The translations under genes were made by a program, and so were the position numbers. From an archaeon (GTDB taxonomy: Archaea; EX4484-52; WAPT01), in contig JAPDKB010000002.1 in assembly GCA_029258795.1 (NCBI GenBank), positions 128,001 through 192,000 on the forward strand: 64,000 nt of DNA, read 5' to 3'. The notes beneath the pieces are model-generated. The model was not told the origin of the DNA, ran no database searches, and saw only the letters and a program-made list of their open reading frames with translations. Positions 35,800 through 62,681 of this stretch are shown here, in pieces (the first letter of the stretch is position 1; each line of letters opens with the position of its first letter).

Positions 35800-35898
35800 A
35801 TAAACCGCCCCCTCGTAAATAGTATTTCAATTGTATGGCTATTGCCTGATTATCCATATATTTTTTCCCTCTATATATATTTTTCTATTTTCCCTTAA

Positions 35899-46728: not shown

Positions 46729-47844
46729 TCAGTTCACTCTATCCATAACAACGATCGTGGCATCAAGATCATCGTAGTTGACCCACAGCTTTTTCTTTAT
46801 TACGAATCCTTTCGGCTTTTTCAAAAACTTGAGATTACGTGAGGCGGTTATCATCACCACCCTTTCGCATCGCGAGCTTTCCACATTTCTCATGAACTTG
46901 GCATAGAGTTTCGGGATGTTGACCTTTCTCATCCTCACACCGTACGGCAGGTCAACGCAGATGATCCTTGAACTCAGCGGTATTTTTGTGGCATCTCCGA
47001 GGTAAAAGCGGATCTTTGCATTGGCTTCCATGCTGTTGATTCTTGCTTTCCTCACCACCTCTCTGTTCCAGTCTGAAGCCGCTATGAATGCATTAACCCG
47101 CTCCTCCTTCCAGCTTTCCTTAATCTCTTCGAGCTTCTCCTTGCTGAACCACCACAATCTCTCAAACCTGAAGCTTCTGTTTTTGTTCGGAACTTTTGCA
47201 AGGTAATGATAGGCTTCTATCGGAATCATGCCTGTTCCACACATAGGATCGTGGAAGGTTTCGCTTTCCCCGTTTTTCAGGTTGCTCAACCTGACCATGC
47301 TGTGCGCTATCGTGCTCTTTAGAGAGGTGATGTGCACAAGCTTTCTGTACCATCGTTTATGGAGGGAATCTCCTGTGGTGTCTATTCCGAGCCAGAATAA
47401 GTTGTTGTGCACCCTCGCCATGAATCTGACATCTGGGTCTTTGAGATACACCTTAAGCCTCGTGCCTTTCTCTTTCAGGTAGGAATCTATGATGGCCTGT
47501 CCAACAACCTTGCTGACATCAATGCTGGTGAAGTCGTGCTTCCCGGATCTTTTGGACACTACACCAAAGGTTTGGTTAGGGAGGACATACAGAGAGTAAT
47601 CAACATCAAGGCACTTTTGATAGATGTCATCCAGCGTGCTGAACTCACAGCTCACAACCTCTATCATGATCCGGTGGATGGTTTTGGAAGCGTAGTTCAG
47701 CAGCATCACGTCTTCATCGCCGGCATTTTTTATTTCCAGCAGGCCCTTGTCCAGCTTTGCAGCCTTATATCCCAGCTCTACAAGCTCCTCAATGCCGACC
47801 TCCTCAAGCCCGGGGTTGCAGGTGAGAAGGAGATCGTGCTTCAT
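46729..47844 (-). CDS. trm14: THUMP-domain RNA methyltransferase (Trm14-like tRNA m2G6)
   Basis: 'PGLEE', THUMP region, 'DTTGDSLHKR.YR', 'DPMCGTG..PIE', 'DLPYG'. Confidence 0.82.
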   Translation of the reverse strand: MKHDLLLTCNPGLEEVGIEELVELGYKAAKLDKGLLEIKNAGDEDVMLLNYASKTIHRIMIEVVSCEFSTLDDIYQKCLDVDYSLYVLPNQTFGVVSKRSGKHDFTSIDVSKVVGQAIIDSYLKEKGTRLKVYLKDPDVRFMARVHNNLFWLGIDTTGDSLHKRWYRKLVHITSLKSTIAHSMVRLSNLKNGESETFHDPMCGTGMIPIEAYHYLAKVPNKNRSFRFERLWWFSKEKLEEIKESWKEERVNAFIAASDWNREVVRKARINSMEANAKIRFYLGDATKIPLSSRIICVDLPYGVRMRKVNIPKLYAKFMRNVESSRCERVVMITASRNLKFLKKPKGFVIKKKLWVNYDDLDATIVVMDRVN

Positions 47845-48573: not shown

Positions 48574-48773
48574 TGGTGCCGAGGGGGGGATTTCCTGCCA
48601 CCAGAGCAGGAAGCGCGACGAAGCTTTGCTTCGGCGGCGTTCGAACCCCCGACCTCCAGATTTCTCAGCGCCGTAACACAAAATCATCGCTTGCTCATTA
48701 CTCGGCAAACTCATCACTCATAAGCCAACACGGCTTATGAGTCTGGCGCTCTAACCAGCTGAGCTACCTCGGC
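48574..48773 (-). tRNA. tRNA-Met(CAT), elongator type, with two introns (37/38: 48662-48735, 74 nt; 59/60: 48591-48639, 49 nt); CCA encoded
   Basis: Exons 48773-48736, 48661-48640 and 48590-48574 join into a 77-nt cloverleaf: acceptor GCCGAGG/CCTCGGC, anticodon stem CCAGA/TCTGG with loop CTCATAA, T arm GGGGG-TTCGAAT-CCCCC. Confidence 0.92.
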
Positions 48774-48858
48774 ACCGAACAAAAGCGTGGCTCCGTAACA
48801 GAATTTTTATCCGGCAAAATTTTATAAAAATTCACACGGCAGCTTCACAAAAACCTTC

Positions 48859-50061
48859 TTAGCGTCTTTCAAATTTTCTGGTGGCGGCTACAAGCAGAAC
48901 AGCTGCAACCAAGCTCATCACAGCTCCATACGCAAATGTTGCTCCAGCGGATACGGAGCTCCACAACACCCCAGCCACCATGCTCGCAGGAAGAGATGCA
49001 AGTCCAACAGTCGTGTGAAATGCTCCAAGAGCTGTGGCTTTAAGTTCAGGCGGAGCTATATCAGCTATCAGGGCACGCTGATTTCCGTCAACTATGGCAT
49101 AAACCACCCCGTAGAGCAGGAAAAGAAGAATGAATGCTGGAATGCTGGAGAGGGCATAAAAACCCAAACATACAGCTGAGAACAGCAGGTAGCCAAGGGA
49201 GATGACTTCACCCCTTCCGATCCTGTCGGAGAGAACTCCAAAGGGCACAGCAAAAAAGGTGTAGGAAACGTTGAAAATAATGTAAAACACCACAGCCGTT
49301 ATGGTGGCGTTCACAACACTAACGCTGTTCATGACCTTCATTATGAAGAACATGTAGCTGAAGTTCGCAAGGGCAAAAACTGTCATCGCAACTACAACCC
49401 ACCTAAGCTCGGGAGGCAGGCTTCTTAAAGCAAGTCCCAATTTTTCCACACCTTTTCCGCTTTTCACCCTTTCCTCTCTCACGAGCAGAAGGGGTATAAG
49501 CGATGCAAAGCTGAGCAAACCTGCCACGATCAGCACACTCCTAATTTCAAAGCTCATCCTCCACAATAAAAAGAGCGCTACGATCGAGCCAACAACCGCC
49601 CCCAAGCTGTCCATGGCTCTATGAATTCCGAAACCCTCTCCTTTCCTCTTCGGCATCGATTCAGCTATTATCGCATCACGGGGAGCTGTCCTTATTCCCT
49701 TTCCAACACGCTCAGCGGAGCTGAAAAAAGCAACATGAACCCAGCTTTTGGAGAAGGGCAGGAGGAGCTTGAACACAGCCGAGATGAGATAGCCAGCGAA
49801 CACTATCGGCTTCCTTCTGTTCCATCTGTCCGCAAGATATCCAGAGAATACCTTCAGCAAGCTGGAGATGCTGTCCCTCAACCCGCCAACCACACCGAGA
49901 GCTACGCTCCCTCCACCAAGCGAGTTTATGAAAGCGGGGAGGAGTGGTGCTATCATATCGCTGCTCACATCGTTGAGAAAGCTGGTCATACCCAGTGCAT
50001 AGATGTTCCTCTTTTCCATTTGGCTGGCTGTTTTCCCGTCTTTCTTGCTCATAGTTCTCAC
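48859..50061 (-). CDS. MFS transporter
   Basis: About 12 TM helices, 'GYLADRWNRRKP', 'ERVGKGIRTAPRDA', 'GVLSDRIGR'. Confidence 0.92.
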   Translation of the reverse strand: MRTMSKKDGKTASQMEKRNIYALGMTSFLNDVSSDMIAPLLPAFINSLGGGSVALGVVGGLRDSISSLLKVFSGYLADRWNRRKPIVFAGYLISAVFKLLLPFSKSWVHVAFFSSAERVGKGIRTAPRDAIIAESMPKRKGEGFGIHRAMDSLGAVVGSIVALFLLWRMSFEIRSVLIVAGLLSFASLIPLLLVREERVKSGKGVEKLGLALRSLPPELRWVVVAMTVFALANFSYMFFIMKVMNSVSVVNATITAVVFYIIFNVSYTFFAVPFGVLSDRIGRGEVISLGYLLFSAVCLGFYALSSIPAFILLFLLYGVVYAIVDGNQRALIADIAPPELKATALGAFHTTVGLASLPASMVAGVLWSSVSAGATFAYGAVMSLVAAVLLVAATRKFERR

Positions 50062-50975
50062 TCCCCGAACACCGTTTCAAGAGGGGGCACAACCTGCTTC
50101 TTTCTCGACATCACTCCTTCAAGCCAAGCTTGGCCATTTTCAAACTTCACGTTAAAAGCTTTCTCAAATGGCTCGACATCATCCGCCACGAGCAGTGCTG
50201 TTGAGCCCTCCTTCATGATGTCCGTAACGAGCACAAGCACTGCAAAGAAACCCTCTTCCTCCTTCACTTTCTTCATCTCCTCCATGATCTCATCCTTTCT
50301 GGAAAGCACTTCCTCGCCATCAACCACTTCCAGCTGGTCTATCAACACCCTTTTACCGGCGAATTCGTACACCTTGTAGTCATTATATATCAGATCACGA
50401 GCGCTTTTCTCACTCAGAGCAGATTTCGCCTTGAACATCTCTATACCCCACGCTTCCATGTTTTCCACGCCTGCGATCTCCGCAAGCTTCCTTGCCATCT
50501 CTTTATCCTCACTGGTGGTTGTGGGCGACTTGAAGATAACAGTGTCTGAAAGGATCGCGGAAAGCAGGATTCCTGCTATGTTTTCGGGCATTTTAACTCC
50601 TTTCTGGAAGAATTTGTTTGCAATGATCGTGGCTGTGCTGCCCGCAGGAACTGTCAGGAAGTAGATGGGTCTGTCCCAGCCGAACTTGATCTTGTGGTGA
50701 TCCACCACCTCCACTATGTTCGCCTGCTCTATATCATCGGCACTCTGATCAAACTCGTTGTGATCAACAAGCACAACATCTTTGTCAGCTGCGCTTTCAA
50801 GCAAAGGTGGAGCATCCATCTCAAATTTCTCGAGCACAAGCTTCGTTTCGTTATTTATCTCGCCAAGCCGGAAAGCTTTTGCCTCTTCCCCTATCACATT
50901 CTTGAGGTACGCGTACGCTATGGCCGAGCAGATGGAGTCCGTGTCCGGGCTTTTATGGCCGAAGACATGCAGCAT
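50058..50975 (-). CDS. ppaC: Manganese-dependent inorganic pyrophosphatase (family II)
   Basis: 'GHKSPDTDS', 'LVDHNE', 'VDHH', 'ILSDT', 'SRKKQ'. Confidence 0.96.
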   Translation of the reverse strand: MLHVFGHKSPDTDSICSAIAYAYLKNVIGEEAKAFRLGEINNETKLVLEKFEMDAPPLLESAADKDVVLVDHNEFDQSADDIEQANIVEVVDHHKIKFGWDRPIYFLTVPAGSTATIIANKFFQKGVKMPENIAGILLSAILSDTVIFKSPTTTSEDKEMARKLAEIAGVENMEAWGIEMFKAKSALSEKSARDLIYNDYKVYEFAGKRVLIDQLEVVDGEEVLSRKDEIMEEMKKVKEEEGFFAVLVLVTDIMKEGSTALLVADDVEPFEKAFNVKFENGQAWLEGVMSRKKQVVPPLETVFGE

Positions 50976-51075
50976 AATATCATCACCTCCTTTCACATAC
51001 GGGACTTAAAATTAAGCGTGCCTAAACTTTAAAACCGTAATCTTTATTTAGATCAAAGACCATTCTATTATCTCG

Positions 51076-51681
51076 GTGATGGAAATGGCGGAGGAGGAAA
51101 GGGCAGAGACGGAAGACCTGATTAACTTTCTTGCTCGGGATATAGGGCAGAAGATAATGCAGTTATATGGAGGCAAACCGGAAAAGATAAGGAAGAAGCT
51201 TGGAGATCATGTTCATATTCTCGAGCTTCAGAATCGCCTCACATCTATAGTGCTCTTTACCATGGGTATGAAAGCTGCTGTCATGGGAGCAGGTCAAACC
51301 GTTGGGAGTGCAATGGCATCTTACATGACGCTATGCTGTGATGTTACGTCCAAAATGAAAAAGTTCCAGCAGGCAAAAACCCTGAAAGAAGCTAAGAACT
51401 CCGAGCTCATGAAAATGCTCAAGGAGCTCTTTGAGAAGACAGGATTGGGCATTCTGGATATGGAAGAATTCGAGAAAGATGAAAGGATTGTGCTCAGCAT
51501 AGAGGAGTGTGTGGAAAGCGCAGGCCTTCCTAATGTCGGAAAGAAGGTCTGCTATTACATGTCCGGATATCTGGAGGGATTGTTCAGCGTCTTTCTCGGA
51601 AAGGAGGTGAAGTGCCGCGAGCTTAAATGTGTGGCGAAGGGCGATAAGAAATGCGTATTTGAAATCGAGATCCTGGAGTGA
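51076..51681 (+). CDS. V4R domain protein
   Basis: 'GLG', 'EC.ES.GLPNVGKKVCYY.SGYLEG', 'E.KC.AKG...C.F'. Confidence 0.88.
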   Translation: MMEMAEEERAETEDLINFLARDIGQKIMQLYGGKPEKIRKKLGDHVHILELQNRLTSIVLFTMGMKAAVMGAGQTVGSAMASYMTLCCDVTSKMKKFQQAKTLKEAKNSELMKMLKELFEKTGLGILDMEEFEKDERIVLSIEECVESAGLPNVGKKVCYYMSGYLEGLFSVFLGKEVKCRELKCVAKGDKKCVFEIEILE

Positions 51682-51741
51682 GGAGGGTTTCTTGAGATAT
51701 AGGGATATCTTTATATAGTTTTTAACCCCCCATTTTAAAAC

Positions 51742-51960
51742 ATGGCGACGGTAATAGATGTGACGGGCAAAGTCTGTCCATATCCGGTCGTGGTGGCTCT
51801 TGACAAGCTCAGAGAGATCAGCAAAAAGGGCGGAACGCTCGAGATCATAACGGACGAGCCCTTGGCAACCAGAAGCGTACCTGACGAGGCAAAAAGGCTT
51901 GGATTCAGAGCAACTGTAGAAAGAGTGGACAAGGGATGGAAGATAGTGATAAAAAAGTGA
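51742..51960 (+). CDS. tusA: TusA/SirA/YeeD family sulfur carrier
   Basis: 'IDVTGKVCPYPVV', 'LEIITD.P', 72 aa; TTTATATA at 51710-51717. Confidence 0.9.
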   Translation: MATVIDVTGKVCPYPVVVALDKLREISKKGGTLEIITDEPLATRSVPDEAKRLGFRATVERVDKGWKIVIKK

Positions 51961-51968
51961 GGTGAGGA

Positions 51969-52394
51969 TTGATGGGGCTTAAGGAGTTCTCATCCAAGGT
52001 CTGGGTTGGAGCAGTGCTCTTTTCGATCGTCAACGTCTTCATGTACTACAGCATCGGCAAGTTCTGGATCGGAGGGAGCAGCTTCCTGCCACTGATCGGC
52101 AGTCAGGTACAGAAGTTCCTGTTTCCACTGGTGGTCAATGCAGGAGTGGTGGTTGGGACATTTCTGGCAGCGTTGCTCACGAGGGAGTTCATAATAAGGA
52201 AGCCAACCTCTGACATAGTGAAGAGATCAATACTCGGTGGCTTCCTTATGGGTATAGGAGTTACATTAGCTCCAGGAACATGCTCCACACCGTTCGTCAC
52301 AGGAATGCCAATGCTGGGAGTGAACTCCTTCCTGTCAGTGATCGGTATAGTGATTGGAGCATATATAGGATACAGATGGGTGGGTAGAAAATGA
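51969..52394 (+). CDS. YeeE/YedE family sulfur-compound transporter, half-size subunit
   Basis: 4 TM helices, 'GGFLMGIG..LAPGTCS'; follows tusA. Confidence 0.75.
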   Translation: MMGLKEFSSKVWVGAVLFSIVNVFMYYSIGKFWIGGSSFLPLIGSQVQKFLFPLVVNAGVVVGTFLAALLTREFIIRKPTSDIVKRSILGGFLMGIGVTLAPGTCSTPFVTGMPMLGVNSFLSVIGIVIGAYIGYRWVGRK

Positions 52395-52915
52395 CGCTGG
52401 CACAACCAACTTTGCTATTGGGATTCCTGTTCGGCGTGGTCTTTGGTTTCATAGTGCAGAGAATGAGCTTCTGCGTTTCCACTGACCTGGCTCAGGCGTT
52501 TGCAGGAAACCCCAGGAGAATTCTGACGTGGCTCACGATAATTTTCATAATCACAGGAGCGGGATTCGTTTACCTCGGACCAAAAGCGGTTGGTCAGCTC
52601 AGGGGTTACGGAATCTACAACATAATTTCTGGGATTTTCTTTGGCGTGGGCATCGTACTCAGCGGTGGCTGCGTGCTTGGAACCCTCAGAAGGATGGGAG
52701 AGGGCTTTCTGCACTCATGGGTGGTCTTCGTTTCATGGCTTCCGGGAATGGCACTGGTGGTTTACGTCCTTAACCCGATATTGCAGGGTACGTACCACAT
52801 ACCAGAAAAGATGCCGCTGCTTTCGGACGTGCTTCACATCAGCAACTGGGCAGCTTATGCGCTGGTAGCAGTTGTGCTGCTTGTGATGACCTGCTGGGCC
52901 TACAGAAAGAAGTAA
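52391..52915 (+). CDS. YeeE/YedE family sulfur-compound transporter, half-size subunit
   Basis: 'GFLFG..FGF..QR..FC', 'G..FGVG..LSGGC..G.L.R.GEG'. Confidence 0.82.
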   Translation: MTLAQPTLLLGFLFGVVFGFIVQRMSFCVSTDLAQAFAGNPRRILTWLTIIFIITGAGFVYLGPKAVGQLRGYGIYNIISGIFFGVGIVLSGGCVLGTLRRMGEGFLHSWVVFVSWLPGMALVVYVLNPILQGTYHIPEKMPLLSDVLHISNWAAYALVAVVLLVMTCWAYRKK

Positions 52916-52952
52916 CAGCATTGCAGAAAAACAGTCGATTGGCACTTTTCTC

Positions 52953-53873
52953 TCATTTTATTTTTATTTCCATGAAATCCTCCGCAATTTTTGTGTTCGG
53001 AAATATCTCCTGCGCCTCCTTCAGCAGCTTCTCCACCGTGTACTTTCTGTTGTTGTTATCCTGCTGGTACCTCCGGCTTATGTGGGTCAGCACAAGCATT
53101 TTCACATTCGCCTCTTTCGCAAGCATTGCCGCCTGCCTTGCTGTCATGTGGTAATACGTATGAGCTCTGTTCTCAAATTCGGAGCAGAAAGTACCATCGC
53201 ATATCAGCACATCAGCATCCTTTACAGCTTTGACAAGCGATTTTCTGTAGCCAGTATCGCCGGTGTAAGCTATTTTTTTACCCTTCACAACCTCCACAAC
53301 ATCTTCCGGCTTTATTCTCCTGCCTTTGAACAGTATCTCCTCTCCCTTTTTCAACTTGCCTATCAGCGGACCCGAAGTTAAGCCAAACTTTTTCGCTTTT
53401 TCCATGTTCGCTTTGATTTTATCCTTTTCCTGAAACACAAAGCCAAGGGAAGGAATGCCGTGGTAGGTTTTGAACGCCTCGATGTAATACCTGTCAAACT
53501 CCACTCTATCCCCTGGCTTGAGGTCTTCAGCTATAACCGCAAAACCCCTCTCAAAATAACCTATGCTCAGCAGCTTTTCAACGAACCCGACAGTACCTTC
53601 CGGGCCGTAAATATAGAGCGGCTTCTTTCTTCCCTCCATGCTCATGGTCTGTATCAATCCGGGCAGCCCAGCGAAGTGATCAGCATGCCAGTGCGTGATG
53701 AACACGGCTTTTATCCTCATGAACTTGAGGTTCTTTATCATGAGCTGTCTTTGCGTGCCTTCTCCGCAATCAAACAGAAAGCGGTCTTCGTTGTACTTTA
53801 TCAGGATGGCAGGTAAACCACGCTCTCTTGTTGGTATGCCGGCGCTCGTCCCAAGAAAATGGATGGTCATCAC
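52953..53873 (-). CDS. rnz: Ribonuclease Z
   Basis: 'FLGTS...PT.ER', 'FDCGEGTQRQ', 'THWHADH', 'YTGDT', 'LTHIS.RY'. Confidence 0.96.
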   Translation of the reverse strand: MMTIHFLGTSAGIPTRERGLPAILIKYNEDRFLFDCGEGTQRQLMIKNLKFMRIKAVFITHWHADHFAGLPGLIQTMSMEGRKKPLYIYGPEGTVGFVEKLLSIGYFERGFAVIAEDLKPGDRVEFDRYYIEAFKTYHGIPSLGFVFQEKDKIKANMEKAKKFGLTSGPLIGKLKKGEEILFKGRRIKPEDVVEVVKGKKIAYTGDTGYRKSLVKAVKDADVLICDGTFCSEFENRAHTYYHMTARQAAMLAKEANVKMLVLTHISRRYQQDNNNRKYTVEKLLKEAQEIFPNTKIAEDFMEIKIK

Positions 53874-55147
53874 AGCTCATCCACCTTAACCAGTTTTTCC
53901 TCCCCGCTTTCCATATCACGCACTTTAACTTTGCCTTCCTTAACCTCATCCGGCCCGACTATCACCACATATCTTGCACCTATTCTGTTCGCATGCTTCA
54001 GCTGCTTTGACAGGCTTCTGTCCATCAGCTCCATCTCGACAGCGTAGCCCTTACCTCTGAGCTTCGATGCTATGCTGGCACAGACATCCATGAGCTGGGG
54101 AGTCACGAAAGCGATGAAGTAATCAGGACTGGTACTCACTTCAGGTAGCTTGCCCTCAGCTTTCAGCACCTCCATCAACCTTTCCACACCACCGGCAAGC
54201 CCCACGGCAGGCATATCCTTACCATAAATTCCAACAAGCTCATCATACCTCCCGCCGCCAAAAATCGCGCTCCCCAGAGCTTTTCTGTTGGTTGCGTAAG
54301 CTTCAAACACTATTCCAGTATAATAATCGAGCCCTCTCACAATAGAAAGGTCGACCACGCAGTTTTCCAGCACGCGGAGAGCTTCCAGCGCATCTCTCAG
54401 CTGCAAGAGTTCATCACATGCGGAATTGACATCCTTACTCTGCACTCTGCTCTTCACGGCTTCGACCACATCTTCGAACTCGCCTTTGAGGTCAAGAGCA
54501 TCCAGCAGATCTTCAGCCTTCTCTCTCATTATTCCACGTCTTTCAAACTCATCCAGCAGCTCTTCCCGTTTCATTTTCTGTAACTTATCTATGCACCGGA
54601 AAGCATCCAAAATTTTATCCCTCTCTATTCCGACAGCTTCCATCACCGCCTGCACAAGTTTCCTGCTACTCACCCTCACCTCAAAATCCACATCAAACGC
54701 TTTCAGCACATCACATCCTAGCGCTATGCATTCCGCATCCGCATAAACGCTTGCTGAGCCGAAAATTTCAGCATCCCACTGCCAGAATGCTCTGTAGCGT
54801 CCTTTTTGTGGAGCTTCATACCTGAACATGTCAGCAATGCAGAACCATCTTACGGGAGTGGGGTAAGCCGAGCCAGCAACCATTCTCGCCATCCCAACGG
54901 TCAGATCAAACCTCAATCCGAGCTTCCTGCCGGCCTTGTCCTCAAAAGCGTAAATCTCTTTTTCTATCTCCTCTCCTGATTTGGCAGCCAGCGTTTCAAA
55001 GCTCTCTATTTTGGTGGGCTCCACCTCCTTAAACGAGTATCTTTTCATGATCTCTCTTATCGTGGAGAATATCGCCTGCCTCGCGGCCATCTCTTCCGGA
55101 TAAATGTCCTTCATCCCTTTGGGTGGTTGAAACTTATCGGACGCCAT
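53870..55147 (-). CDS. hisS: Histidine-tRNA ligase
   Basis: 'PKGMKD', 'LRFDLT', 'FRYE.PQKGRYR.F.Q', 'RGLDYYTG', 'GGGRYD'. Confidence 0.97.
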   Translation of the reverse strand: MASDKFQPPKGMKDIYPEEMAARQAIFSTIREIMKRYSFKEVEPTKIESFETLAAKSGEEIEKEIYAFEDKAGRKLGLRFDLTVGMARMVAGSAYPTPVRWFCIADMFRYEAPQKGRYRAFWQWDAEIFGSASVYADAECIALGCDVLKAFDVDFEVRVSSRKLVQAVMEAVGIERDKILDAFRCIDKLQKMKREELLDEFERRGIMREKAEDLLDALDLKGEFEDVVEAVKSRVQSKDVNSACDELLQLRDALEALRVLENCVVDLSIVRGLDYYTGIVFEAYATNRKALGSAIFGGGRYDELVGIYGKDMPAVGLAGGVERLMEVLKAEGKLPEVSTSPDYFIAFVTPQLMDVCASIASKLRGKGYAVEMELMDRSLSKQLKHANRIGARYVVIVGPDEVKEGKVKVRDMESGEEKLVKVDEL

Positions 55148-55172
55148 GAAAGAGAATTAGCCATCAGAATTT

Positions 55173-55565
55173 TTAAATAAGTGATTTTGGGCCTTTTTCC
55201 TCCTTCATATTGCAGTAGATTTTGGTTTCGGGATAAATGTTCCTTATACTCGATATCAAAGATAGCGCTCTATAGGTGGCGTCGCTTCCTTCCTCATTAA
55301 TCCTGATCACCAATTCTCCATCGTTACTGTAATAATCTCCTTTTAGGGAATATCTTTCGGGCTCAACCCCCAGAGAGGCAAGATAGTCCATTGCCACTTT
55401 TTCAATTTCTTCCAAGGTTTTTTTAGGTCGAGACGCCCCACAGAAATGAATTTTTATCTCTCTACTGCCCTCAATTCTGTCAAACTCCTCATTAACAACA
55501 ACATGTTTCGGCTGACTTTTTACAATGTTCCTGTACAGTTGTTGGAAGGATGTTAGCATAACCAT
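55173..55565 (-). CDS. Hypothetical protein
   Basis: ORF filling the hisS-alaS gap; start uncertain. Confidence 0.55.
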   Translation of the reverse strand: MVMLTSFQQLYRNIVKSQPKHVVVNEEFDRIEGSREIKIHFCGASRPKKTLEEIEKVAMDYLASLGVEPERYSLKGDYYSNDGELVIRINEEGSDATYRALSLISSIRNIYPETKIYCNMKEEKGPKSLI

Positions 55566-55680
55566 CCCTTCCAATTTTCTGGTGGGAATTTTTAATTTGT
55601 TGTGTTTATAGCTCATCCGTCAAGGAATACATAATCCCCATAACCAAAAATAAAAAGTTTCGCTCTCCAATTTTCTGAGC

Positions 55681-58383
55681 ATGGTCGTTGATGAGAAAAA
55701 GATCAAGCAGGAGTTCAAGAAGAAAGCGCAGAAGACGCCTGAGAAATACTATCCTGCAGAATTCCTGAAAAGCGAGGGCTTTGTTAGAAAGCAGTGCAAG
55801 AAGTGCGGCACATTCTTCTGGAGTGTGGATGAAAGCAGAGAGATCTGTGATGATCCCAACTGCACCGGCTTCTATTCTTTTATAGGAAATAGTCCTTCTC
55901 CCGTGAAAATGGACTTCATAAAGGTCTGGAAAGAGTTTGCGAAGCTGTTTGAAAAGCTCGGCTACACACCCATAGCGAGATATCCGGTTGTTGCAAGGTG
56001 GAGGGATGACATGGATTTTGTGATAGCCAGCATAGCTGATTTCCAGCCGCATGTTGTGAGCGGTGAGGTTGAGCCTCCTGCAAATCCCCTTGTTGTTCCG
56101 CAGTTCTGTCTGCGCTTCACGGACATAGAAAACGTTGGTATAACGGGAAGGCATTACACGGGTTTCGTGATGATAGGGCAGCATGCCTTTGTGCCAGCAG
56201 AGCAATACGATCAGGAGAAGTATCTCGCGGACATATATGAATGGCTGAGAAGGGGTCTAAAGCTTCCGAAGGAGGAGATAGTTTTTCATGAGGATGCTTG
56301 GGCAGGCGGTGGAAACATGGGCCCGAGCATGGAGTTTTTCTCCCGCTCTCTGGAGATCGGGAATCAGGTCTACATGATGTTTGACATCAGAGATGGCACG
56401 ATAAAGGAGCTGCCTATAAAAGTGCTCGACATGGGGATGGGGCAGGAAAGGTGTGCGTGGCTAACAACTGCTTCCGCCACCAGCTATGAGGCCAATATGC
56501 CGAAGGTGGTTGAGCTTCTTTACAGGCTTACCGGAGTTAAGCCGGAGCATGAAATTATCGAAAAATTCCTGCCTTATTCGGGCGTGCTGAACGTGGATGA
56601 GTTGGAGGATGTTGAGAAAGCATGGCAGAGTGTAGCGAAAAAGATGGGCGTGGATGTTCAGCAGCTTAAAAGGGCAATTCTCCCTGCTGCAGCCATATAT
56701 GCCATAGCAGACCACACAAGAAGCCTGCTCTTCGCTATAGGAGACGGTGCCCTGCCGTCCAACGTTGGTGGCGGCTACAATTTGCGTGTAATTCTGCGCA
56801 GGGTTTTTGATTTGATGGACGAATACGGCTGGAGTTTTGATCTGGCAAAGGTGCTGGAAACTCATGCCTCCTACATGAAATCCCAGTACCCCGAGCTGAT
56901 GGATGTGGTGGAGCACGTTGCCACGGTTTTTGAGGTTGAACGTAAAAAATACGATGCCACCAGAAAGATGGTGAAGAAAATAGTGGCGAAGCTGAAAGAA
57001 GAGAAGCTGGACGAAGAAAAACTCGTGGAGCTCTATGACAGCAAGGGCATCTCTCCGGAAATGCTGGTAAAAGAAGGTATCATAGAGAAGGTACCGAAGG
57101 ACTTCTACACAAAGCTGGCTGAAAGGCATGAGAGGGCAAGAAGGAAAGAGCTTGAAAAGAAGGAGAAGGAAGTAAAGCTCGAGCTTAAAGGCGTGCCGCC
57201 AACTCAGATTCTTTACTATGATGATTACAGGCTTGTGGAATTTGAGGCTAAAGTTGTCAGGGTAGATGGAAACTTTGTGGTGCTGGACAGGACCGCTTTT
57301 TACCCGACGAGCGGAGGTCAGCTTCACGATGTTGGGTGGCTTGATGGAGTGGAGGTTGTGAACGTATTCAAGGAGGGTAATCTAGTGGTGCATGAGGTTA
57401 AAGATGGAGGCAAATTCAGGGAAGGGATGAAGGTCAGGGGCAAGATAGATGTGGAGCGAAGAGTGCGGCTTGCACAGCTGCATACCGCTACACACATAAT
57501 AGGTGGCGCGTGCAGAAAGGTTGTAGGAAAGCATGTGTGGCAGGCAGGAGCGGAGAAAAGGCCGGAAAAGGCGAGGCTTGATATAACCCATTACGAATCG
57601 CTGGATGAGAAAATGATAAGAAAGATTGAGGAGGAGGCGAACAGAATCGTGATGCTCAACATTCCGGTAGAGAGCTTGATGATAGAAAGGAATGAAGCGG
57701 AAAAGAAATTCGGATTTGTGATCTATCAGGGCGGGGCCGTGCCGGGGAAGATACTCAGGATAGTCAAGATAGATGATTTCGATGTGCAGGCGTGCGGAGG
57801 AACGCACGTAAAAAGCACGGGTGAGGTTGGACCCATAAAGGTGGTGGGCACAACCAAAATTCAGGATGGTGTTGTCAGACTTGAGTTTGTAGCTGGTTTA
57901 AGTCTGCTTGACTACGTGAAGGAAATGGAATCGTATTTAAAGGAAAGTTGTTCGGTGCTTGAGGTAGCACCACAGCATCTTGCAAAAACCGTCAGAAGAT
58001 TCTTTGAAGAGTGGAAGAAGCAGAAAAAGGAGATAGAAGTGCTGAGAAGCAAGCTTGATGAGGTGCTTGTGAGCAAAGCGAAACTGGAGAGAAAGGAGTT
58101 TGATGGTGTTACATGCATGTTCTCCAAGCTGGAGGACATGGAGCTGAAGGACGTGCTCAAATATGCTAGTGAGAAGGCAAAGGATGCTGACGTTCCAATC
58201 TTGGTTGTCAGCGTGAAGGGTAAAGGTGCGCAGCTCGTAATCGCTTACAACAAGAACACATATGATAAAGCTAATGTGCTGAAAGAATGGGTGGAAAAGG
58301 AGCTACAGGTAAAGATGCGTGAGGGCAAGGATGTATTCGTGGGCGGGTGCGCTGCAGAGAAACTCAAGAGTAAGCTACTGTGA
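55681..58383 (+). CDS. alaS: Alanine-tRNA ligase (archaeal type)
   Basis: 'YPVVARWRDD', 'ASIADFQP', 'ADHTR', 'FYPTSGGQ..D', 'HTATH', 'CGGTH'. Confidence 0.97.
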   Translation: MVVDEKKIKQEFKKKAQKTPEKYYPAEFLKSEGFVRKQCKKCGTFFWSVDESREICDDPNCTGFYSFIGNSPSPVKMDFIKVWKEFAKLFEKLGYTPIARYPVVARWRDDMDFVIASIADFQPHVVSGEVEPPANPLVVPQFCLRFTDIENVGITGRHYTGFVMIGQHAFVPAEQYDQEKYLADIYEWLRRGLKLPKEEIVFHEDAWAGGGNMGPSMEFFSRSLEIGNQVYMMFDIRDGTIKELPIKVLDMGMGQERCAWLTTASATSYEANMPKVVELLYRLTGVKPEHEIIEKFLPYSGVLNVDELEDVEKAWQSVAKKMGVDVQQLKRAILPAAAIYAIADHTRSLLFAIGDGALPSNVGGGYNLRVILRRVFDLMDEYGWSFDLAKVLETHASYMKSQYPELMDVVEHVATVFEVERKKYDATRKMVKKIVAKLKEEKLDEEKLVELYDSKGISPEMLVKEGIIEKVPKDFYTKLAERHERARRKELEKKEKEVKLELKGVPPTQILYYDDYRLVEFEAKVVRVDGNFVVLDRTAFYPTSGGQLHDVGWLDGVEVVNVFKEGNLVVHEVKDGGKFREGMKVRGKIDVERRVRLAQLHTATHIIGGACRKVVGKHVWQAGAEKRPEKARLDITHYESLDEKMIRKIEEEANRIVMLNIPVESLMIERNEAEKKFGFVIYQGGAVPGKILRIVKIDDFDVQACGGTHVKSTGEVGPIKVVGTTKIQDGVVRLEFVAGLSLLDYVKEMESYLKESCSVLEVAPQHLAKTVRRFFEEWKKQKKEIEVLRSKLDEVLVSKAKLERKEFDGVTCMFSKLEDMELKDVLKYASEKAKDADVPILVVSVKGKGAQLVIAYNKNTYDKANVLKEWVEKELQVKMREGKDVFVGGCAAEKLKSKLL

Positions 58384-58446
58384 TTCCCCTTTTATCGGCA
58401 ACCCAGACACACAATCTTTATCTGCTTTTTCACCCTTACATTCTTC

Positions 58447-58995
58447 ATGATGCTCTTCTTTCGCGTTTCTGAAGTGGGAAAATGCATGAGGTTCCTCTAC
58501 TTTACCAGAGTGCTCGGGAGGCTTGAGGACATCTCCTCCAAGCCAGAAGTCGTGGAAGGCAAAACCCTACATGAGAACTTCCAGAACGAGTGGATCGAGC
58601 AGGTTGACAGCGAAGCTAAACAGGAAGAGGAAGCGATGTTCCTACATGACAAGTTCGTGGTGAGGGGTAAAGCTGACATAGTGAGCGGAGATAAGGTCAT
58701 AGAGATAAAGACCACAAATAAGCTGCCACCCAGACCATATGAGACCCATGTAAGGCAGCTTAATTTTTACCTCGGGCTTTTCAAGCTGGAGCACGGCTTA
58801 CTGATTTACCTCCTGCGGAACGGAAACGGCAGGAGAGAGTTTGAGGTGGGCTTTGACGAAGGAATGTTTCTCAACGACCTCAGACGGTTCGAGAAACTTT
58901 ACGAATGCCTCACTAGCTTCATAGTTCCGGAAAAGGAGCCATCGCCGCTCTGCAACTTCTGCGAGTACAGGTTCTTGTGTGATAGAATGAAATAA
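58447..58995 (+). CDS. Stand-alone Cas4-like PD-(D/E)XK nuclease
   Basis: 'C.R' N-terminus, 'G...H', 'GKADI', 'IEIKT', 'QL.FY', terminal 'C..C.Y...C' Fe-S ligands. Confidence 0.85.
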   Translation: MMLFFRVSEVGKCMRFLYFTRVLGRLEDISSKPEVVEGKTLHENFQNEWIEQVDSEAKQEEEAMFLHDKFVVRGKADIVSGDKVIEIKTTNKLPPRPYETHVRQLNFYLGLFKLEHGLLIYLLRNGNGRREFEVGFDEGMFLNDLRRFEKLYECLTSFIVPEKEPSPLCNFCEYRFLCDRMK

Positions 58996-59033
58996 TGGTT
59001 TGATTCTTAAAATTATGGAATAAACATGTTTGC

Positions 59034-59921
59034 ATGCATGAAAATTACGGATTTACATGCGCATACGACTTGTTAAGGGGAGGATATGATCCTCAAAGAA
59101 AAAATGAACTGGTAGCGGAACTGTATCGCGCTGAGAGTTCTTTTCTAAAAGATTTGGTGGATGAGTGGATCGCAGAGAAGGTTGTTGAGAGCAGGGAAAA
59201 GCTCGAAAAGGAAATCAATGAAATTTATGATGGTGTATGCACATCCTTACCGCCTGTGCTCACAACAAAAACTCACTGCAATGTTGTGCCCTACAGAATA
59301 GACATAAAACACAAGGGCGGTGTGCCTTGCCTATCACTTAGATTGGTTTCATGGTTTAAGGGGGATGAGGTGTATATTCAGCCAGCGGGGCTGTACGAGT
59401 TGGAGGTGTGTGGTGAGTTTCCACAGGAATTGGAAAATTATGAAATTGTGCTTCATTCCGAGGGTAGCATGATATCTCCATCAGCTTCGGTTTGCATTCC
59501 TCATAAAGATCTGGCGGAAAATGATAGAAAGCTTGTGGAAAATTTTGTGCAGCTTGTTCTGAGCTATTTTGGTCATGTTTATGAGGCAGAAAGAAAAATG
59601 GAAAGCTTGGAAAAGGATTTGGAGCTAATGGAGAAAGAACTTAACAAACTTTATGCTGATCCTGTGCTTTTTTATTCTCGAACGGATAACAGACCTGTGG
59701 GAATCCTCATTCCTCCCCATTTTACACACATAGTGGTTGGTGAGGATGTTCTTCCTACTTCCAACGGAAAAATTGCTGTTGAGGTTGATGGAAAGAGGCT
59801 TCAGAGAGCTTTACTGCTTTTAAGGGCGGAGGCCTTTGATAGAGCGGTGGTGCAGGAGGACTGGAGATGGGAGCCGTGGTACTGGTATGCTGAGGTGAAG
59901 GAAGGTACAGTTTTTCGCTGA
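59034..59921 (+). CDS. Hypothetical protein
   Basis: 295-aa ORF; no family recognised. Confidence 0.65.
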   Translation: MHENYGFTCAYDLLRGGYDPQRKNELVAELYRAESSFLKDLVDEWIAEKVVESREKLEKEINEIYDGVCTSLPPVLTTKTHCNVVPYRIDIKHKGGVPCLSLRLVSWFKGDEVYIQPAGLYELEVCGEFPQELENYEIVLHSEGSMISPSASVCIPHKDLAENDRKLVENFVQLVLSYFGHVYEAERKMESLEKDLELMEKELNKLYADPVLFYSRTDNRPVGILIPPHFTHIVVGEDVLPTSNGKIAVEVDGKRLQRALLLLRAEAFDRAVVQEDWRWEPWYWYAEVKEGTVFR

Positions 59922-59977
59922 ATTAAAGAGCTGAGCAGTGGAAATAATAAATAGTAGTTTGCCAACATTACTTTTTC

Positions 59978-61381
59978 ATGAGGAAGGATGAAATGAGGAA
60001 AGTGCTTGCTCAAGCATTGAACCTTGTTAAACCGTCTGTCGAGGAAAAAAAGAAGGTGATGAAGCTTTTCGAGAAGATAAAAGAGTTTATAGAGCAGAAT
60101 TACGGGCTGGAAGCTAGGTTAATGGGTTCTGTGGCCAAGGACACGTTTTTGAGGGGAGCAAGAGACCTGGACATCTTCGTGCTATTTCCGGTTGATGTGA
60201 GCAGGGAGGAGCTGGAGAAGAAGGGGCTTGAAATTGGAAGAGCGGTTTTCGAGCATTTTGGAGGAAAGGATGTCGTTGTTGCCTATGCCGAACATCCGTA
60301 CACGAGAGGTGTGATCGATGGTTTTGAGGTTGAAATCGTGCCAGCTTACAAGATAAAGGATGCGTCTCAGCTTAAGAGCGCGGTTGACAGGACTCCATTT
60401 CACACGGATTACGTGCTCAAAAATTTAAGGAATCATGATGATGTCAGGCTGTTGAAAGCATTTTTGAAAGCGATAGGAGCGTACGGTTCTGATCTCAAGA
60501 CTGCTGGCTTTTCCGGCTACTTGTGTGAGGTGCTCATAATCCATTGCGGAGATTTTATTTCCCTGCTGGAAGCGTGTCAGAGATGGGGATGGCAGGAGAT
60601 TATAGATCCCGCAGGCCATTACAGCAGGAAGGATTACTCCAAGCTCAGAAGGATGTTCAAAGGACAGCCGCTGATAGTTGTGGATCCCGTCGATCCCAAG
60701 AGAAACGTGGCTGCTGCGCTTTCTGCTGAGAAGCTCGCTTTATTCATTTACGCTGCCAGGAAGTTCATGGAAAAGCCATCCATTAAATTCTTCCAGCCCA
60801 TCAAGATCAGAGTGAACAAGAAAGCGGAGCTGGAAAAGCTGAAAAAGGAGGGCAGGAAAGTTTACGCTCTTGTGTTGGAAAGGCCTGCCGGAGTGATGGA
60901 CGACACTCTTTACCCGCAGTTGAAAAAACTCGCTGACAACATCAAAGCTTTTCTCGAGCACAACGAGTTTGTGGTGGAGGATACATGGATTTTCGGGGAT
61001 GAGGAGGTCGGAGTTGGGTTTGAAGTGGTTGATGACAGGCTTCCATTGACGAGGATAATGAAGGGCCCGCGCATTTTCGATGATGTGAAGCATCAGGAAA
61101 GGTTTGTGAGCAAGCACAAAGTTGTGTGGATCGGAGAGGGCGGGAGATTTTATGCGAGGGAAAAAAGGAAGTACAGAAACGTGAGGGAGCTCATCTCCTA
61201 CCATCTCTCAGGCAGTTTTGAGGAGATAAGGCAGAAGGGTGTACCCAAACACATAGCGAGAAGCGTGACAGAGCATGGCTATCTCTTGTTCAAGAACGAG
61301 GAATTAAGAGAGGTGAAAAGCAGAGAGTTCTGGGAGGGGCTTGTCAAATTCAACCTGCGAAAGCTGGAAAGATTAGAGTAA
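59978..61381 (+). CDS. cca: CCA-adding tRNA nucleotidyltransferase (class I)
   Basis: 'GSVAKDTFL...DLDIF', 'YAEHPY', 'SAVDRTPFH', 'GFSGYL.E', 'DPVDP.RNVAA'. Confidence 0.96.
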   Translation: MRKDEMRKVLAQALNLVKPSVEEKKKVMKLFEKIKEFIEQNYGLEARLMGSVAKDTFLRGARDLDIFVLFPVDVSREELEKKGLEIGRAVFEHFGGKDVVVAYAEHPYTRGVIDGFEVEIVPAYKIKDASQLKSAVDRTPFHTDYVLKNLRNHDDVRLLKAFLKAIGAYGSDLKTAGFSGYLCEVLIIHCGDFISLLEACQRWGWQEIIDPAGHYSRKDYSKLRRMFKGQPLIVVDPVDPKRNVAAALSAEKLALFIYAARKFMEKPSIKFFQPIKIRVNKKAELEKLKKEGRKVYALVLERPAGVMDDTLYPQLKKLADNIKAFLEHNEFVVEDTWIFGDEEVGVGFEVVDDRLPLTRIMKGPRIFDDVKHQERFVSKHKVVWIGEGGRFYAREKRKYRNVRELISYHLSGSFEEIRQKGVPKHIARSVTEHGYLLFKNEELREVKSREFWEGLVKFNLRKLERLE

Positions 61382-62491
61382 AAGGGTGCAGGTCTCAGCC
61401 ACCATGGCAAACAGTATCACCGCCATGCACAGCGCGTAGAGAATCTTCTCCATAACTTTCAGCTTTTCAACCCTCATAAGTGTGAACAGAATGAACCCTA
61501 TGGGTATTAGCACGCCGTAACAGGCGGCTATAGCAAGCAGCTGCGTAAAGCTGAAATTTCCCAGCCCCATAAACACGCTGACGAGAAGGAGCAGAATGGC
61601 TGACTCTCTCCTGAGCTTCAGATCACTTTCCATCATATCACACGCGGCAAGCGTTACCGCAATGGCTGATGTTGCTACTGCAAAAAACGCGAAGCTCACT
61701 CCAAGCACCTGCAGAACACCGCTGCTGAAGGATGTTGGTGCAATTTCATTGACTTCAGGCATCGAAGCCACAACAGCAAGCGAGAAGAGCAGGTAAATCA
61801 GAGCGGGAATTCCGAAGCCAAGCACAATAACGCTCCTGAAGTTCCTTTCAAGGTGCTCGTGCCTCAGCAGTTTGTACGCTTCGGGAATCACCATGTGGGC
61901 ATCCATCGCAAATAGTATGACCAGAAATGAAGTGAGTAGATTTCTCATTTCATTATCCGCGCTCCAGAAAAGCGGTACCTTTTCAACATTCCCGTTGGGA
62001 AGCAAAAGAACGATGAGAAGAAGGATAACTGTGACCATCATGAACGTTATGACGGATTCCAGCCTGCCGGTGCTTTTCAATCCCGTGATTACGGGAAAAG
62101 TGCAGAGCAGAAATAACACCACAACTCCGTAGATGTTGCTCAACCCTACATGAGCAAAGAGCGAGCTGTAAGCGGTGAAATATGCCCCGAGCGTCGGCAC
62201 AAAGAAAAGAAGAAGCGAAAGCACGACCACCCTCTTGCCTGTTTTTCCAAACCCGAGCTCCACCAGCTCTCCCAGATAAACCCGATCCACATTTTTGAAA
62301 TGCTGCATCAGCCTTTTGGTGGCGAGGGATGTAAGATAATATATCCAGAACGCGATGACTGCAAGCAGAATATAAGGCACAAGTCCGCTCTCCTTCAGGC
62401 GGGAGGGCAAACCCAAGATGCCAGCACCTATTACCGCTCCCACAAGAATTGATACGCTCTCCACATATGCTTCGCGTTTCCACAGAATCAT
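61373..62491 (-). CDS. Amino acid permease (aromatic amino acid/HAAAP-like)
   Basis: 'LVGAVIGAGILGLP' N-terminal motif, about 11 TM helices. Confidence 0.82.
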   Translation of the reverse strand: MILWKREAYVESVSILVGAVIGAGILGLPSRLKESGLVPYILLAVIAFWIYYLTSLATKRLMQHFKNVDRVYLGELVELGFGKTGKRVVVLSLLLFFVPTLGAYFTAYSSLFAHVGLSNIYGVVVLFLLCTFPVITGLKSTGRLESVITFMMVTVILLLIVLLLPNGNVEKVPLFWSADNEMRNLLTSFLVILFAMDAHMVIPEAYKLLRHEHLERNFRSVIVLGFGIPALIYLLFSLAVVASMPEVNEIAPTSFSSGVLQVLGVSFAFFAVATSAIAVTLAACDMMESDLKLRRESAILLLLVSVFMGLGNFSFTQLLAIAACYGVLIPIGFILFTLMRVEKLKVMEKILYALCMAVILFAMVAETCTLLL

Positions 62492-62554
62492 GATTTTATG
62501 GTTGACCCTTCAAAACTATTTTAAGATTTCGGTGGTATAATATAGCTACACCAC

Positions 62555-62681
62555 GCGGGGGTCGCCTAGCCTGGTTTGGCGTGGGACTGCAGATCCCATT
62601 TACCCGGGTTCGAATGCTGCGGAAGCAAAACTTCCTTGCATTTCCAGCTGTCCGCAGCTGAAAATCCCGGCCCCCGCTCCA
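62555..62681 (+). tRNA. tRNA-Cys(GCA) with a 50-nt intron at 59/60 (62615-62664); CCA encoded
   Basis: Acceptor GCGGGGG/CCCCCGC, U73 discriminator, anticodon arm TGGGA-CTGCAGA-TCCCA, T arm CCGGG-TTCGAA[intron]T-CCCGG with a full BHB. Confidence 0.92.

Follow-up and report, generated by a model that had tools for sequence, protein, structure and literature searches.

Results

The 64,000-nucleotide (nt) stretch analyzed here (the window; contig JAPDKB010000002.1 of assembly GCA_029258795.1, positions 128,001 to 192,000) comes from an archaeon and contains a tRNA-Cys gene and a tRNA-Met gene whose T-loops are both interrupted between positions 59 and 60. Judged by their sequences, the two inserts are archaeal tRNA introns of the bulge-helix-bulge (BHB) type, which are spliced by proteins. 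The reading that we favor, with a probability of about 85%, is that they belong to a family of 59/60 introns that has colonized many unrelated tRNA genes, with many of the introns gained on the branch of this genome. The introns of different tRNAs resemble one another more closely than the tRNAs themselves do, and the orthologous sites are empty in relatives.

Two introns at the same T-loop site

The coordinates, sequences and common insertion site assigned to the two inserts in a preliminary description of the window were borne out by direct reading. Both lie between A59 and T60, with GGTTCGAA on the 5' side and T on the 3' side. The T-arm of the tRNA-Met gene reads GGGGG TTCGAA, the 49-nt insert, T CCCCC, and that of the tRNA-Cys gene reads CCGGG TTCGAA, the 50-nt insert, T CCCGG. 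The intact window yields no tRNA with ARAGORN and no Rfam match at the gathering score. Following in silico removal of the inserts, ARAGORN accepts a Cys-GCA tRNA, and a Met-CAT tRNA that retains a 74-nt canonical intron.

An ungapped comparison of the first 35 positions of the Met and Cys introns gives 26 identities, the number reported previously, and this exceeds all controls. Among 221 pairs of 59/60 introns from the same genome in which one or both introns fall outside the family, the mean is 9.4 matches and the maximum 16. None of 100000 shuffles reached 26, the highest value being 21. Positions 9–35, beyond the 5' strand of the splice helix, contain 21 identities in 27, again not reached in 100000 shuffles.

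Both introns are real. Contigs of independent hydrothermal-vent metagenome runs contain the Met intron (run X2) and the Cys intron (runs X2 and X3) with single differences, and because these contigs cover both introns, an assembly artifact is excluded. No joint skipping either 59/60 intron occurs among the metagenome contig joints listed. Loose contig ends at position 62615 carry different acceptor sequences and are read as intronless tRNAs of other organisms.

Fold of the introns within the precursor tRNA

In the precursor tRNA the inserts form an hBHBh' motif, with the T-stem as the outer helix. The T-loop bases T54, T55, C56 and R57 pair with an intron YGRA sequence located directly before the last two intron bases, which creates the central helix. 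The splice sites lie within two 3-nt bulges, one comprising A58, A59 and the first intron base, the other comprising the last two intron bases and T60. The inner helix contains 7 base pairs (bp) between intron positions 2–8 and 37–44. In the Cys precursor, positions 62616-62622 pair with 62652-62658 in the inner helix, and the TGAA at 62659-62662 pairs with the T-loop TTCG at 62609-62612. The Met inner helix pairs 48638-48632 with 48603-48597. When this fold was imposed on a 14-row alignment of introns with their T-arms, 97.1% of the 208 cells were paired, with individual helices at 96–100%. Sliding the partner strand by 1–3 columns reduced pairing to 33–54% (at most 54.3%), and none of 500 shuffles reached the observed value. 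Six pairs exhibit double changes on the family alignment. RNAalifold recovers the T-stem and inner helix unaided, and the single-sequence minimum free energy folds of both introns contain the same two helices.

The preliminary description envisaged a different structure, two hairpins inside the intron supported by compensatory changes at pairs 1:26 and 7:21 and by a T-A to A-T exchange in the second hairpin. These changes are present in the two sequences, but over the 13 distinct rows of the family, pairing in the proposed helices (the 5' hairpin with 1:26, the helix with 7:21, and the 3' hairpin) amounts to only 56%, 78% and 65% of cells, respectively, and the 3' hairpin competes with the splice motif. 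The two-hairpin fold was rejected because its per-helix pairing of 56–78% compares with 96–100% for the BHB helices.

The same description took the conserved interior as a sign of a functional RNA, that is, an excised and perhaps circular intron with a cellular role and an interior under selection. The identity of the Met and Cys interiors (21 of 27 positions) favors this, as does an interior hairpin (alignment columns 18–22 with 28–32) that is 78% paired and includes one compensatory change. Also in its favor, a 9-base word of the Cys interior recurs in a 59/60 intron of a Bathyarchaeota genome. Nevertheless, the well-supported covariation resides in the T-stem and the inner splice helix rather than in the proposed hairpins, the outer and second of which are poorly paired. 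The invariant columns of the 14-row alignment are confined to the T-arm, intron positions 2–3 and the 3' end of the splice motif; none is in the interior, and the three sub-groups of the family have different interiors. Furthermore, orthologous 59/60 introns of congeners are often unrelated in sequence. The introns match no family in Rfam 15, either in the window at the gathering score or at E values up to 1, where the only hits are a partial tRNA match and sub-threshold C/D matches within the canonical Met intron. A functional RNA is thus highly unlikely. With no invariant interior, covariation limited to the splice motif and T-stem, frequently unrelated congener introns and no Rfam match, the likeness of the Met and Cys interiors is best read as recent common descent. 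Autonomous group I or group II introns were also considered and rejected, as 49–50 nt is too short, no Rfam intron model matches and the genome contains no RVT_1 domain.

59/60 introns across the genome

The genome (1.17 Mb, 23 contigs, an estimated ~96% complete) was searched for T-arms (stem and loop) interrupted after position 59, together with a matching acceptor stem. The loose form of the scan returned 1209 candidates and the tightened form 152, from which 30 tRNA genes with a 59/60 intron were identified. Removal of the insert yields a tRNA recognized by ARAGORN in 29 of the 30, including Cys and Met. All four central-helix bases pair with the T-loop in 27 introns, and 21 pass a strict 3-4-3 motif test. 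A covariance model of the T-arm and intron re-finds 26 of the 30, its other matches being only three bare T-arms. The CCA end is encoded in 27 of these split genes.

Thirteen further tRNA genes possess an uninterrupted T-loop of the same consensus, and about four more tRNA-like pieces carry other interruptions, such that 59/60 interruptions affect ~30 of 47 tRNA genes. On the unmodified genome, ARAGORN reports 20–25 tRNAs and Rfam gives 20 matches above its cut-off, four of them on a probably foreign contig.

Empty and filled sites in related genomes

The genome (hereafter G000) was compared with two congeners (G001 and G002) and with 38 more genomes of the same order. Neither congener has an interruption in the T-loop of its tRNA-Cys or tRNA-Met ortholog. 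The congener Cys genes are 97% identical to that of G000 over the aligned part, and the Met precursor with its canonical intron is the same in G001 and G002 and 95% identical to that of G000. At the 35 tRNA loci typed in G002, a 59/60 intron is present in nine, all in tRNAs that are split in G000 too, and 25 are uninterrupted at the T-loop (one locus comprises two Leu genes, both uninterrupted). Thirteen G000 introns correspond to an empty orthologous site with the same T-loop flanks in G002: those of Trp, Ala-GGC, Cys, Met, Thr-GGT, Gly-CCC, Ala-CGC, Leu-CAA, Pro-GGG, Val-GAC, Gln-TTG, Leu-GAG and Leu-TAG. Some T-arm bases differ in two adjacent Leu genes of this set. Ser-TGA and Gly-TCC are further, less certain empty sites, and two other "empty" rows were left out because they were matched at best to a poor or incorrect ortholog.

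The direction of change was examined in the wider order. For tRNA-Cys, 15 genomes give a full-length-type match; the gene is unbroken in 14 of them, the exception being G000 with a break at position 61, and tRNA-Met, Val-GAC and Gly-CCC follow the same pattern. Because the outgroups are uninterrupted, the comparison shows gain of these four introns on the G000 branch. The covariance model finds 24 matches in G000 versus 0–8 in each of the other 27 phylum members with a completeness of 80% or more, which all belong to one order. This contrast is not due to training bias alone, because the model recovers seven of the nine known G002 introns. Taken with the empty sites, these distributions show that many 59/60 introns, Cys and Met included, were gained on this branch. 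As the flanking protein genes are only ~69% identical to those of the congeners, "recent" gain means since the congener split.

The tRNA-Ala(GGC) gene occurs with identical exons in three states: a 46-nt intron in G000, an unrelated 49-nt intron in G001 and an empty site in G002. Where orthologs share a 59/60 intron, the congeners often have wholly different sequences for it, Arg-GCG, His and Ser-GCT being examples, which points to turnover.

The converse history, in which all the introns were present in the genus ancestor and underwent precise loss in the relatives, for instance by recombination with complementary DNA of mature tRNAs, is very improbable. The nine introns common across the genus agree with it, and with congeners as close as G001 and G002 each difference is a single event in either direction. 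Opposing it, Cys, Met, Val-GAC and Gly-CCC are uninterrupted in the outgroup families of the order, and the 27 other phylum genomes have few or no model matches compared with 24 here. In addition, the intron copies within G000 are 80–100% alike, whereas the flanking genes are only ~69% identical to those of the congeners, and the Ala-GGC site is occupied by unrelated introns in G000 and G001.

Other genera of the order have 59/60 introns of their own, of ~80 nt in a Gly tRNA in one genus and of ~33 nt in a Met-like tRNA in another (loci G013 C69 3298-3395, G018 C13 4155-4252 and G022 C107 3869-3956; G004 C18 7486-7556, G020 C81, G030 C90 and G032 C78), which suggests independent gains at the same site. 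A pattern combining the T-loop and the intron ends retrieved nine loci from species-representative genomes. In four of these the match is a 59/60 intron of an archaeal tRNA, with two "Nanobdellati archaeon" genomes and one each from Micrarchaeota and Bathyarchaeota represented; the other five are bacterial, and the two of these that were inspected (L002 and L004) have no surrounding tRNA. The Bathyarchaeota 59/60 intron at L009 3864-3919 shares with the Cys intron the 9-base interior word noted above and also has a comparable stretch that can form a hairpin. The shared word could be due to chance (roughly 1–5%, a rough estimate), or the family could be older or horizontally spread.

One family in eight isotypes

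Eleven introns, in tRNAs for eight amino-acid types, constitute one family: Cys, Met, Pro-CGG, Pro-TGG, Gly-TCC, Gly-CCC, Ala-CGC, Val-GAC, Leu-CAA, Leu-CAG and Glu-TTC. A hidden Markov model (HMM) of the intron only, run against the whole assembly, recovers the 11 members, with the next match at an E value of 0.99, and no free copies were found; apart from the three bare T-arms of the covariance model, matches are confined to position 59/60 of tRNAs. An exact intron-only pattern matched nine metagenome contigs, none with an adjoining T-arm, and no viral contigs; the pattern is strict and would miss diverged copies in both sets. The nine matches are read as chance.

In cross-isotype pairs, the introns are 80–91% identical and the exons 49–71%. 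The respective intron and exon identities are 0.91 and 0.71 for Ala-CGC and Val-GAC, 0.87 and ~0.50 for Leu and Val, 0.84 and 0.67 for Cys and Gly-CCC, and 0.80 and 0.58 for Cys and Pro-TGG. Over the entire set, 12 of the 30 introns fall into four cross-isotype families at 80% identity or more; controls with shuffled interiors gave 0. Two ARAGORN labels were corrected before this count ("Thr" to Ala-GGC and "Ser" to Leu-GAG). Thus the proposals that a homologous intron family occupies one site in unrelated tRNAs, and that it has spread among them, are supported by the 11 members found, the Met-Cys likeness above controls, the excess of intron over exon identity and the empty orthologous sites in relatives.

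Least credible of the alternatives is duplication of intron-bearing tRNA genes followed by a change of anticodon and body, the intron never being copied alone, which suits isoacceptor pairs (Leu-CAA/Leu-CAG, intron 100% and exons 95% identical; Pro-CGG/Pro-TGG, 81% and 90%) but neither the cross-isotype identities nor the fact that the orthologous genes themselves lack the intron in the congeners, where they occupy the same loci and their exons are identical or nearly so.

Splicing enzymes and a model for spread

EndA is encoded by the only splicing endonuclease gene found and comprises N-terminal and catalytic domains; no second endonuclease subunit was found in the genome. The solved structure that it matches best over its full length is the M. 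jannaschii homotetramer (1a79). Compared with the M. jannaschii enzyme it contains a 7-residue insert, which aligns with the insert of the N. equitans alpha subunit. The host endonuclease is therefore predicted to be alpha4-like, with a DPANN-type insert. A gene for the ligase RtcB is present as well.

These observations are compatible with the following model. The exons would contribute the T-stem, the T54 T55 C56 R57 strand and A58 A59 / T60 to the splice motif, and the intron would contribute YGRA as the 3' strand of the central helix together with the internal 7-bp helix. EndA would cleave in the two 3-nt bulges and RtcB would then join the exons. A 59/60 intron would bring every variable part with it and would be splice-competent in any recipient tRNA. 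The exon half of the motif coincides with the near-universal T-arm, which would make the T-loop a hot spot, and splice competence anywhere would explain how one family and at least three others colonized the same site in many tRNAs. Entry into DNA may occur by short-homology gene conversion between T-arms via the 8 + 6 conserved flanking bases, or by an RNA route, ligation into a T-loop followed by reverse transcription. The RNA route is mildly disfavored because no reverse transcriptase was found.

A stronger version of the RNA route regards the 59/60 introns as active, protein-less mobile RNAs. The YGRA of an excised intron would pair with the T-loop of another tRNA, EndA and RtcB would reverse-splice it, and the product would be copied into DNA. 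Such an element would be expected to leave the trace seen here, three Ala(GGC) states and at least 13 gains on a single branch, yet we consider this version unlikely.

Several points weigh against the reading that a family of protein-spliced 59/60 introns has spread on this branch. With regard to the catalog, the 30 genes were chosen by eye among the 152 regular-expression candidates prior to validation. With regard to splicing, the sequencing runs listed with the locus include no RNA run, so that splicing is deduced from the gene sequences. Nine of the 30 introns fail the strict motif test and their cleavage relies on an assumed tolerance of the enzyme, while the single-subunit EndA type is classically held to require strict motifs, according to PMC3239211. 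Even in the family, the Met central helix has three pairs and one G-A mismatch (TTCG against AGGA), and the Gly-CCC intron has a G-A mismatch there too. As to gain, G001 and G002 are close kin and count as one comparison, six G000 introns have no identified ortholog in the 35-locus table of G002, and outgroup polarity covers four tRNAs, the gain of the remaining introns following from the counts. As to insertion, no RVT_1 reverse transcriptase was found in the 96% complete genome, no co-converted flanks are visible in the G000/G002 comparison, and neither insertion route is supported.

Other features of the window and genome

Between its two tRNA genes the window is rich in tRNA-related genes (Table 1), namely those for a THUMP-domain methyltransferase, histidyl-tRNA synthetase (HisRS), alanyl-tRNA synthetase (AlaRS) and a CCA-adding enzyme, which occurs here even though most split tRNA genes encode CCA. 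The single tyrosine recombinase gene found in the genome probably encodes the chromosomal Xer-type enzyme.

Table 1 Location of the tRNA genes, introns and associated protein genes.
Feature	Location	Strand	Remarks
tRNA-Cys(GCA) gene, encoded CCA, split at 59/60	window 62555..62681 (contig C2 190555-190681)	+	own scan; called Cys-GCA by ARAGORN without the insert
Cys 59/60 intron, 50 nt	window 62615..62664	+	splice sites after 62614 and after 62664; strict 3-4-3 motif
Elongator-type tRNA-Met(CAT) gene, two introns	window 48574..48773	-	own scan; ARAGORN on insert-removed sequence
Met 59/60 intron, 49 nt	window 48591..48639	-	most divergent family member; family HMM 18.6 bits, E 0.0021
Canonical (37/38 region) tRNA-Met intron, 74 nt	window 48662..48735	-	outside the 59/60 family; ARAGORN i(39,74); conserved in both congeners
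THUMP-domain methyltransferase	window 46729-47844		
HisRS	window 53870-55147		
AlaRS	window 55681-58383		
CCA-adding enzyme	window 59978-61381		
EndA, sole splicing endonuclease gene, 197 residues, N-terminal and catalytic domains	contig C6 ~35296-35889 (L010 1216-1809)		starts ~40 bases after tRNA-Phe (C6 35182-35258)
RtcB ligase	contig C3 134423-135718		
Tyrosine recombinase, single gene found	contig C7 47627-48121		between tRNA-Thr(TGT) (uninterrupted T-loop) and tRNA-Gln(TTG) (59/60 intron)

The canonical introns of tRNA-Met and tRNA-Leu(CAA) (55 nt; C3 113040-113230) contain C-box- and D-box-like words, and such words are possible in the canonical intron of tRNA-Trp (59 nt; C2 24474-24647). 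The Met intron, conserved in both congeners, scores 23.9 bits with Rfam sR11, below the cut-off of 39. These canonical introns may encode methylation guides.

Four tRNA-like pieces were noted (C3 79362-79429, C3 ~64066-64082, C2 52503-52624 and C3 58968-59096). Two consist of a T-arm and 3' acceptor end with no obvious adjoining 5' half and may be split, permuted or heavily interrupted genes; the other two are genes with introns at different non-canonical places. Leu-GAG (C2 63833-64005) carries an additional insert in the variable region.

Contig C11 (165-495) contains a tight Thr-Gly-Tyr-Thr tRNA cluster that is intronless, bacterial-looking and has the top Rfam tRNA scores in the assembly, and contigs C10, C12 and C17 have a G+C content of 28–31% compared with ~44% elsewhere. 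All four are probably foreign contigs in the bin, despite a reported contamination of 0.

Discussion

Spread of introns between tRNAs has been published for the Thermoproteales, where transposed tRNA introns were described by Fujishima et al. 2010 (as summarized in PMC4033280 and PMC4090602). As presented in these summaries, near-identical BHB introns occur there at the same position of different isotypes and are more alike than the tRNA bodies, the event appears recent and its mechanism is unknown, all as in the present case. The signs of transposed introns are found here as well: similar introns across isotypes, less similar tRNA bodies, and gain after divergence. The proportion of introns with cross-isotype identity of at least 80% is 12 of 30 here and 28.3% in the Thermoproteales (section 2.5 of bioRxiv 10.64898/2026.10.13.758758), by measures that are similar but not identical. 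The systems differ, on the basis of the same summaries, in that the host here is not a crenarchaeon but has a small DPANN-type genome, and in that its endonuclease has a single subunit rather than forming an alpha-beta heterotetramer. Moreover, all 30 introns are at 59/60 rather than at various positions, and the congeners directly display orthologous sites in an empty state between identical flanks.

Introns at 59/60 are likewise known, from Candidatus Micrarchaeum acidiphilum ARMAN-2, in which 56% of tRNA genes are disrupted (PMC3239211). Both ARMAN-2, also a DPANN archaeon, and the present genome have 59/60 introns in tRNA-Cys(GCA) and tRNA-Pro. That report gives a strict hBHBh' within the T-loop for the ARMAN-2 tRNA-Pro and shows that the 59/60 intron of tRNA-Cys is cleaved in vitro. 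That Cys intron measures 13 nt and has a relaxed motif, compared with 50 nt and a strict motif here, and the ARMAN-2 endonuclease is of the three-unit epsilon2 type, compared with the single-unit enzyme of this genome. As far as the account in PMC3239211 goes, ARMAN-2 introns occur at various positions and no intron family spreading among its tRNAs is described.

Kaneta et al. 2018 (PMC5829648) are cited here for linking DPANN single-subunit EndAs with an insert in the C-terminal region (L3) to increased tRNA gene disruption. The EndA insert of the present enzyme sits where the N. equitans alpha subunit has one, its possible equivalence to L3 resting on one pairwise alignment. The tRNA-Trp intron of Haloferax volcanii, which according to PMC4090602 doubles as a box C/D guide, provides an example of a constrained interior. 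The canonical Met intron shares C/D-like motifs with it, unlike the 59/60 family, which has neither a C/D-box Rfam match nor a C-box-like word in its alignment. The idea that introns block viral integration at tRNA genes was put forward earlier (Randau and Soll 2008, as reported in PMC4090602).

Intron spread between tRNAs, 59/60 introns and the idea of integration protection are therefore already published. New are the host lineage, the enzyme type, the ~2/3 of tRNA genes split at one site and the direct comparison of filled and empty orthologs. No such case is described in the DPANN tRNA-intron literature searched, which did not extend to supplementary tables that may list 59/60 counts. The mechanism of tRNA intron gain was called unknown in a 2014 review (PMC4090602), and section 2.5 of the Asgard archaea preprint (bioRxiv 10.64898/2026.10.13.758758) reports that no general route of intron gain was found. 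Were the 59/60 introns mobile RNAs, archaeal tRNA intron gain would for the first time have a worked-out route.

One practical consequence is that standard tRNA finders miss most of the tRNAs in this genome, which affects annotation and completeness estimates of such genomes. For the study of intron gain the genus offers a clean data set, with one target site, several young families and a minimal splicing apparatus. It includes filled and empty orthologous sites with identical flanks and, at Ala-GGC, two introns and an empty allele in three congeners.

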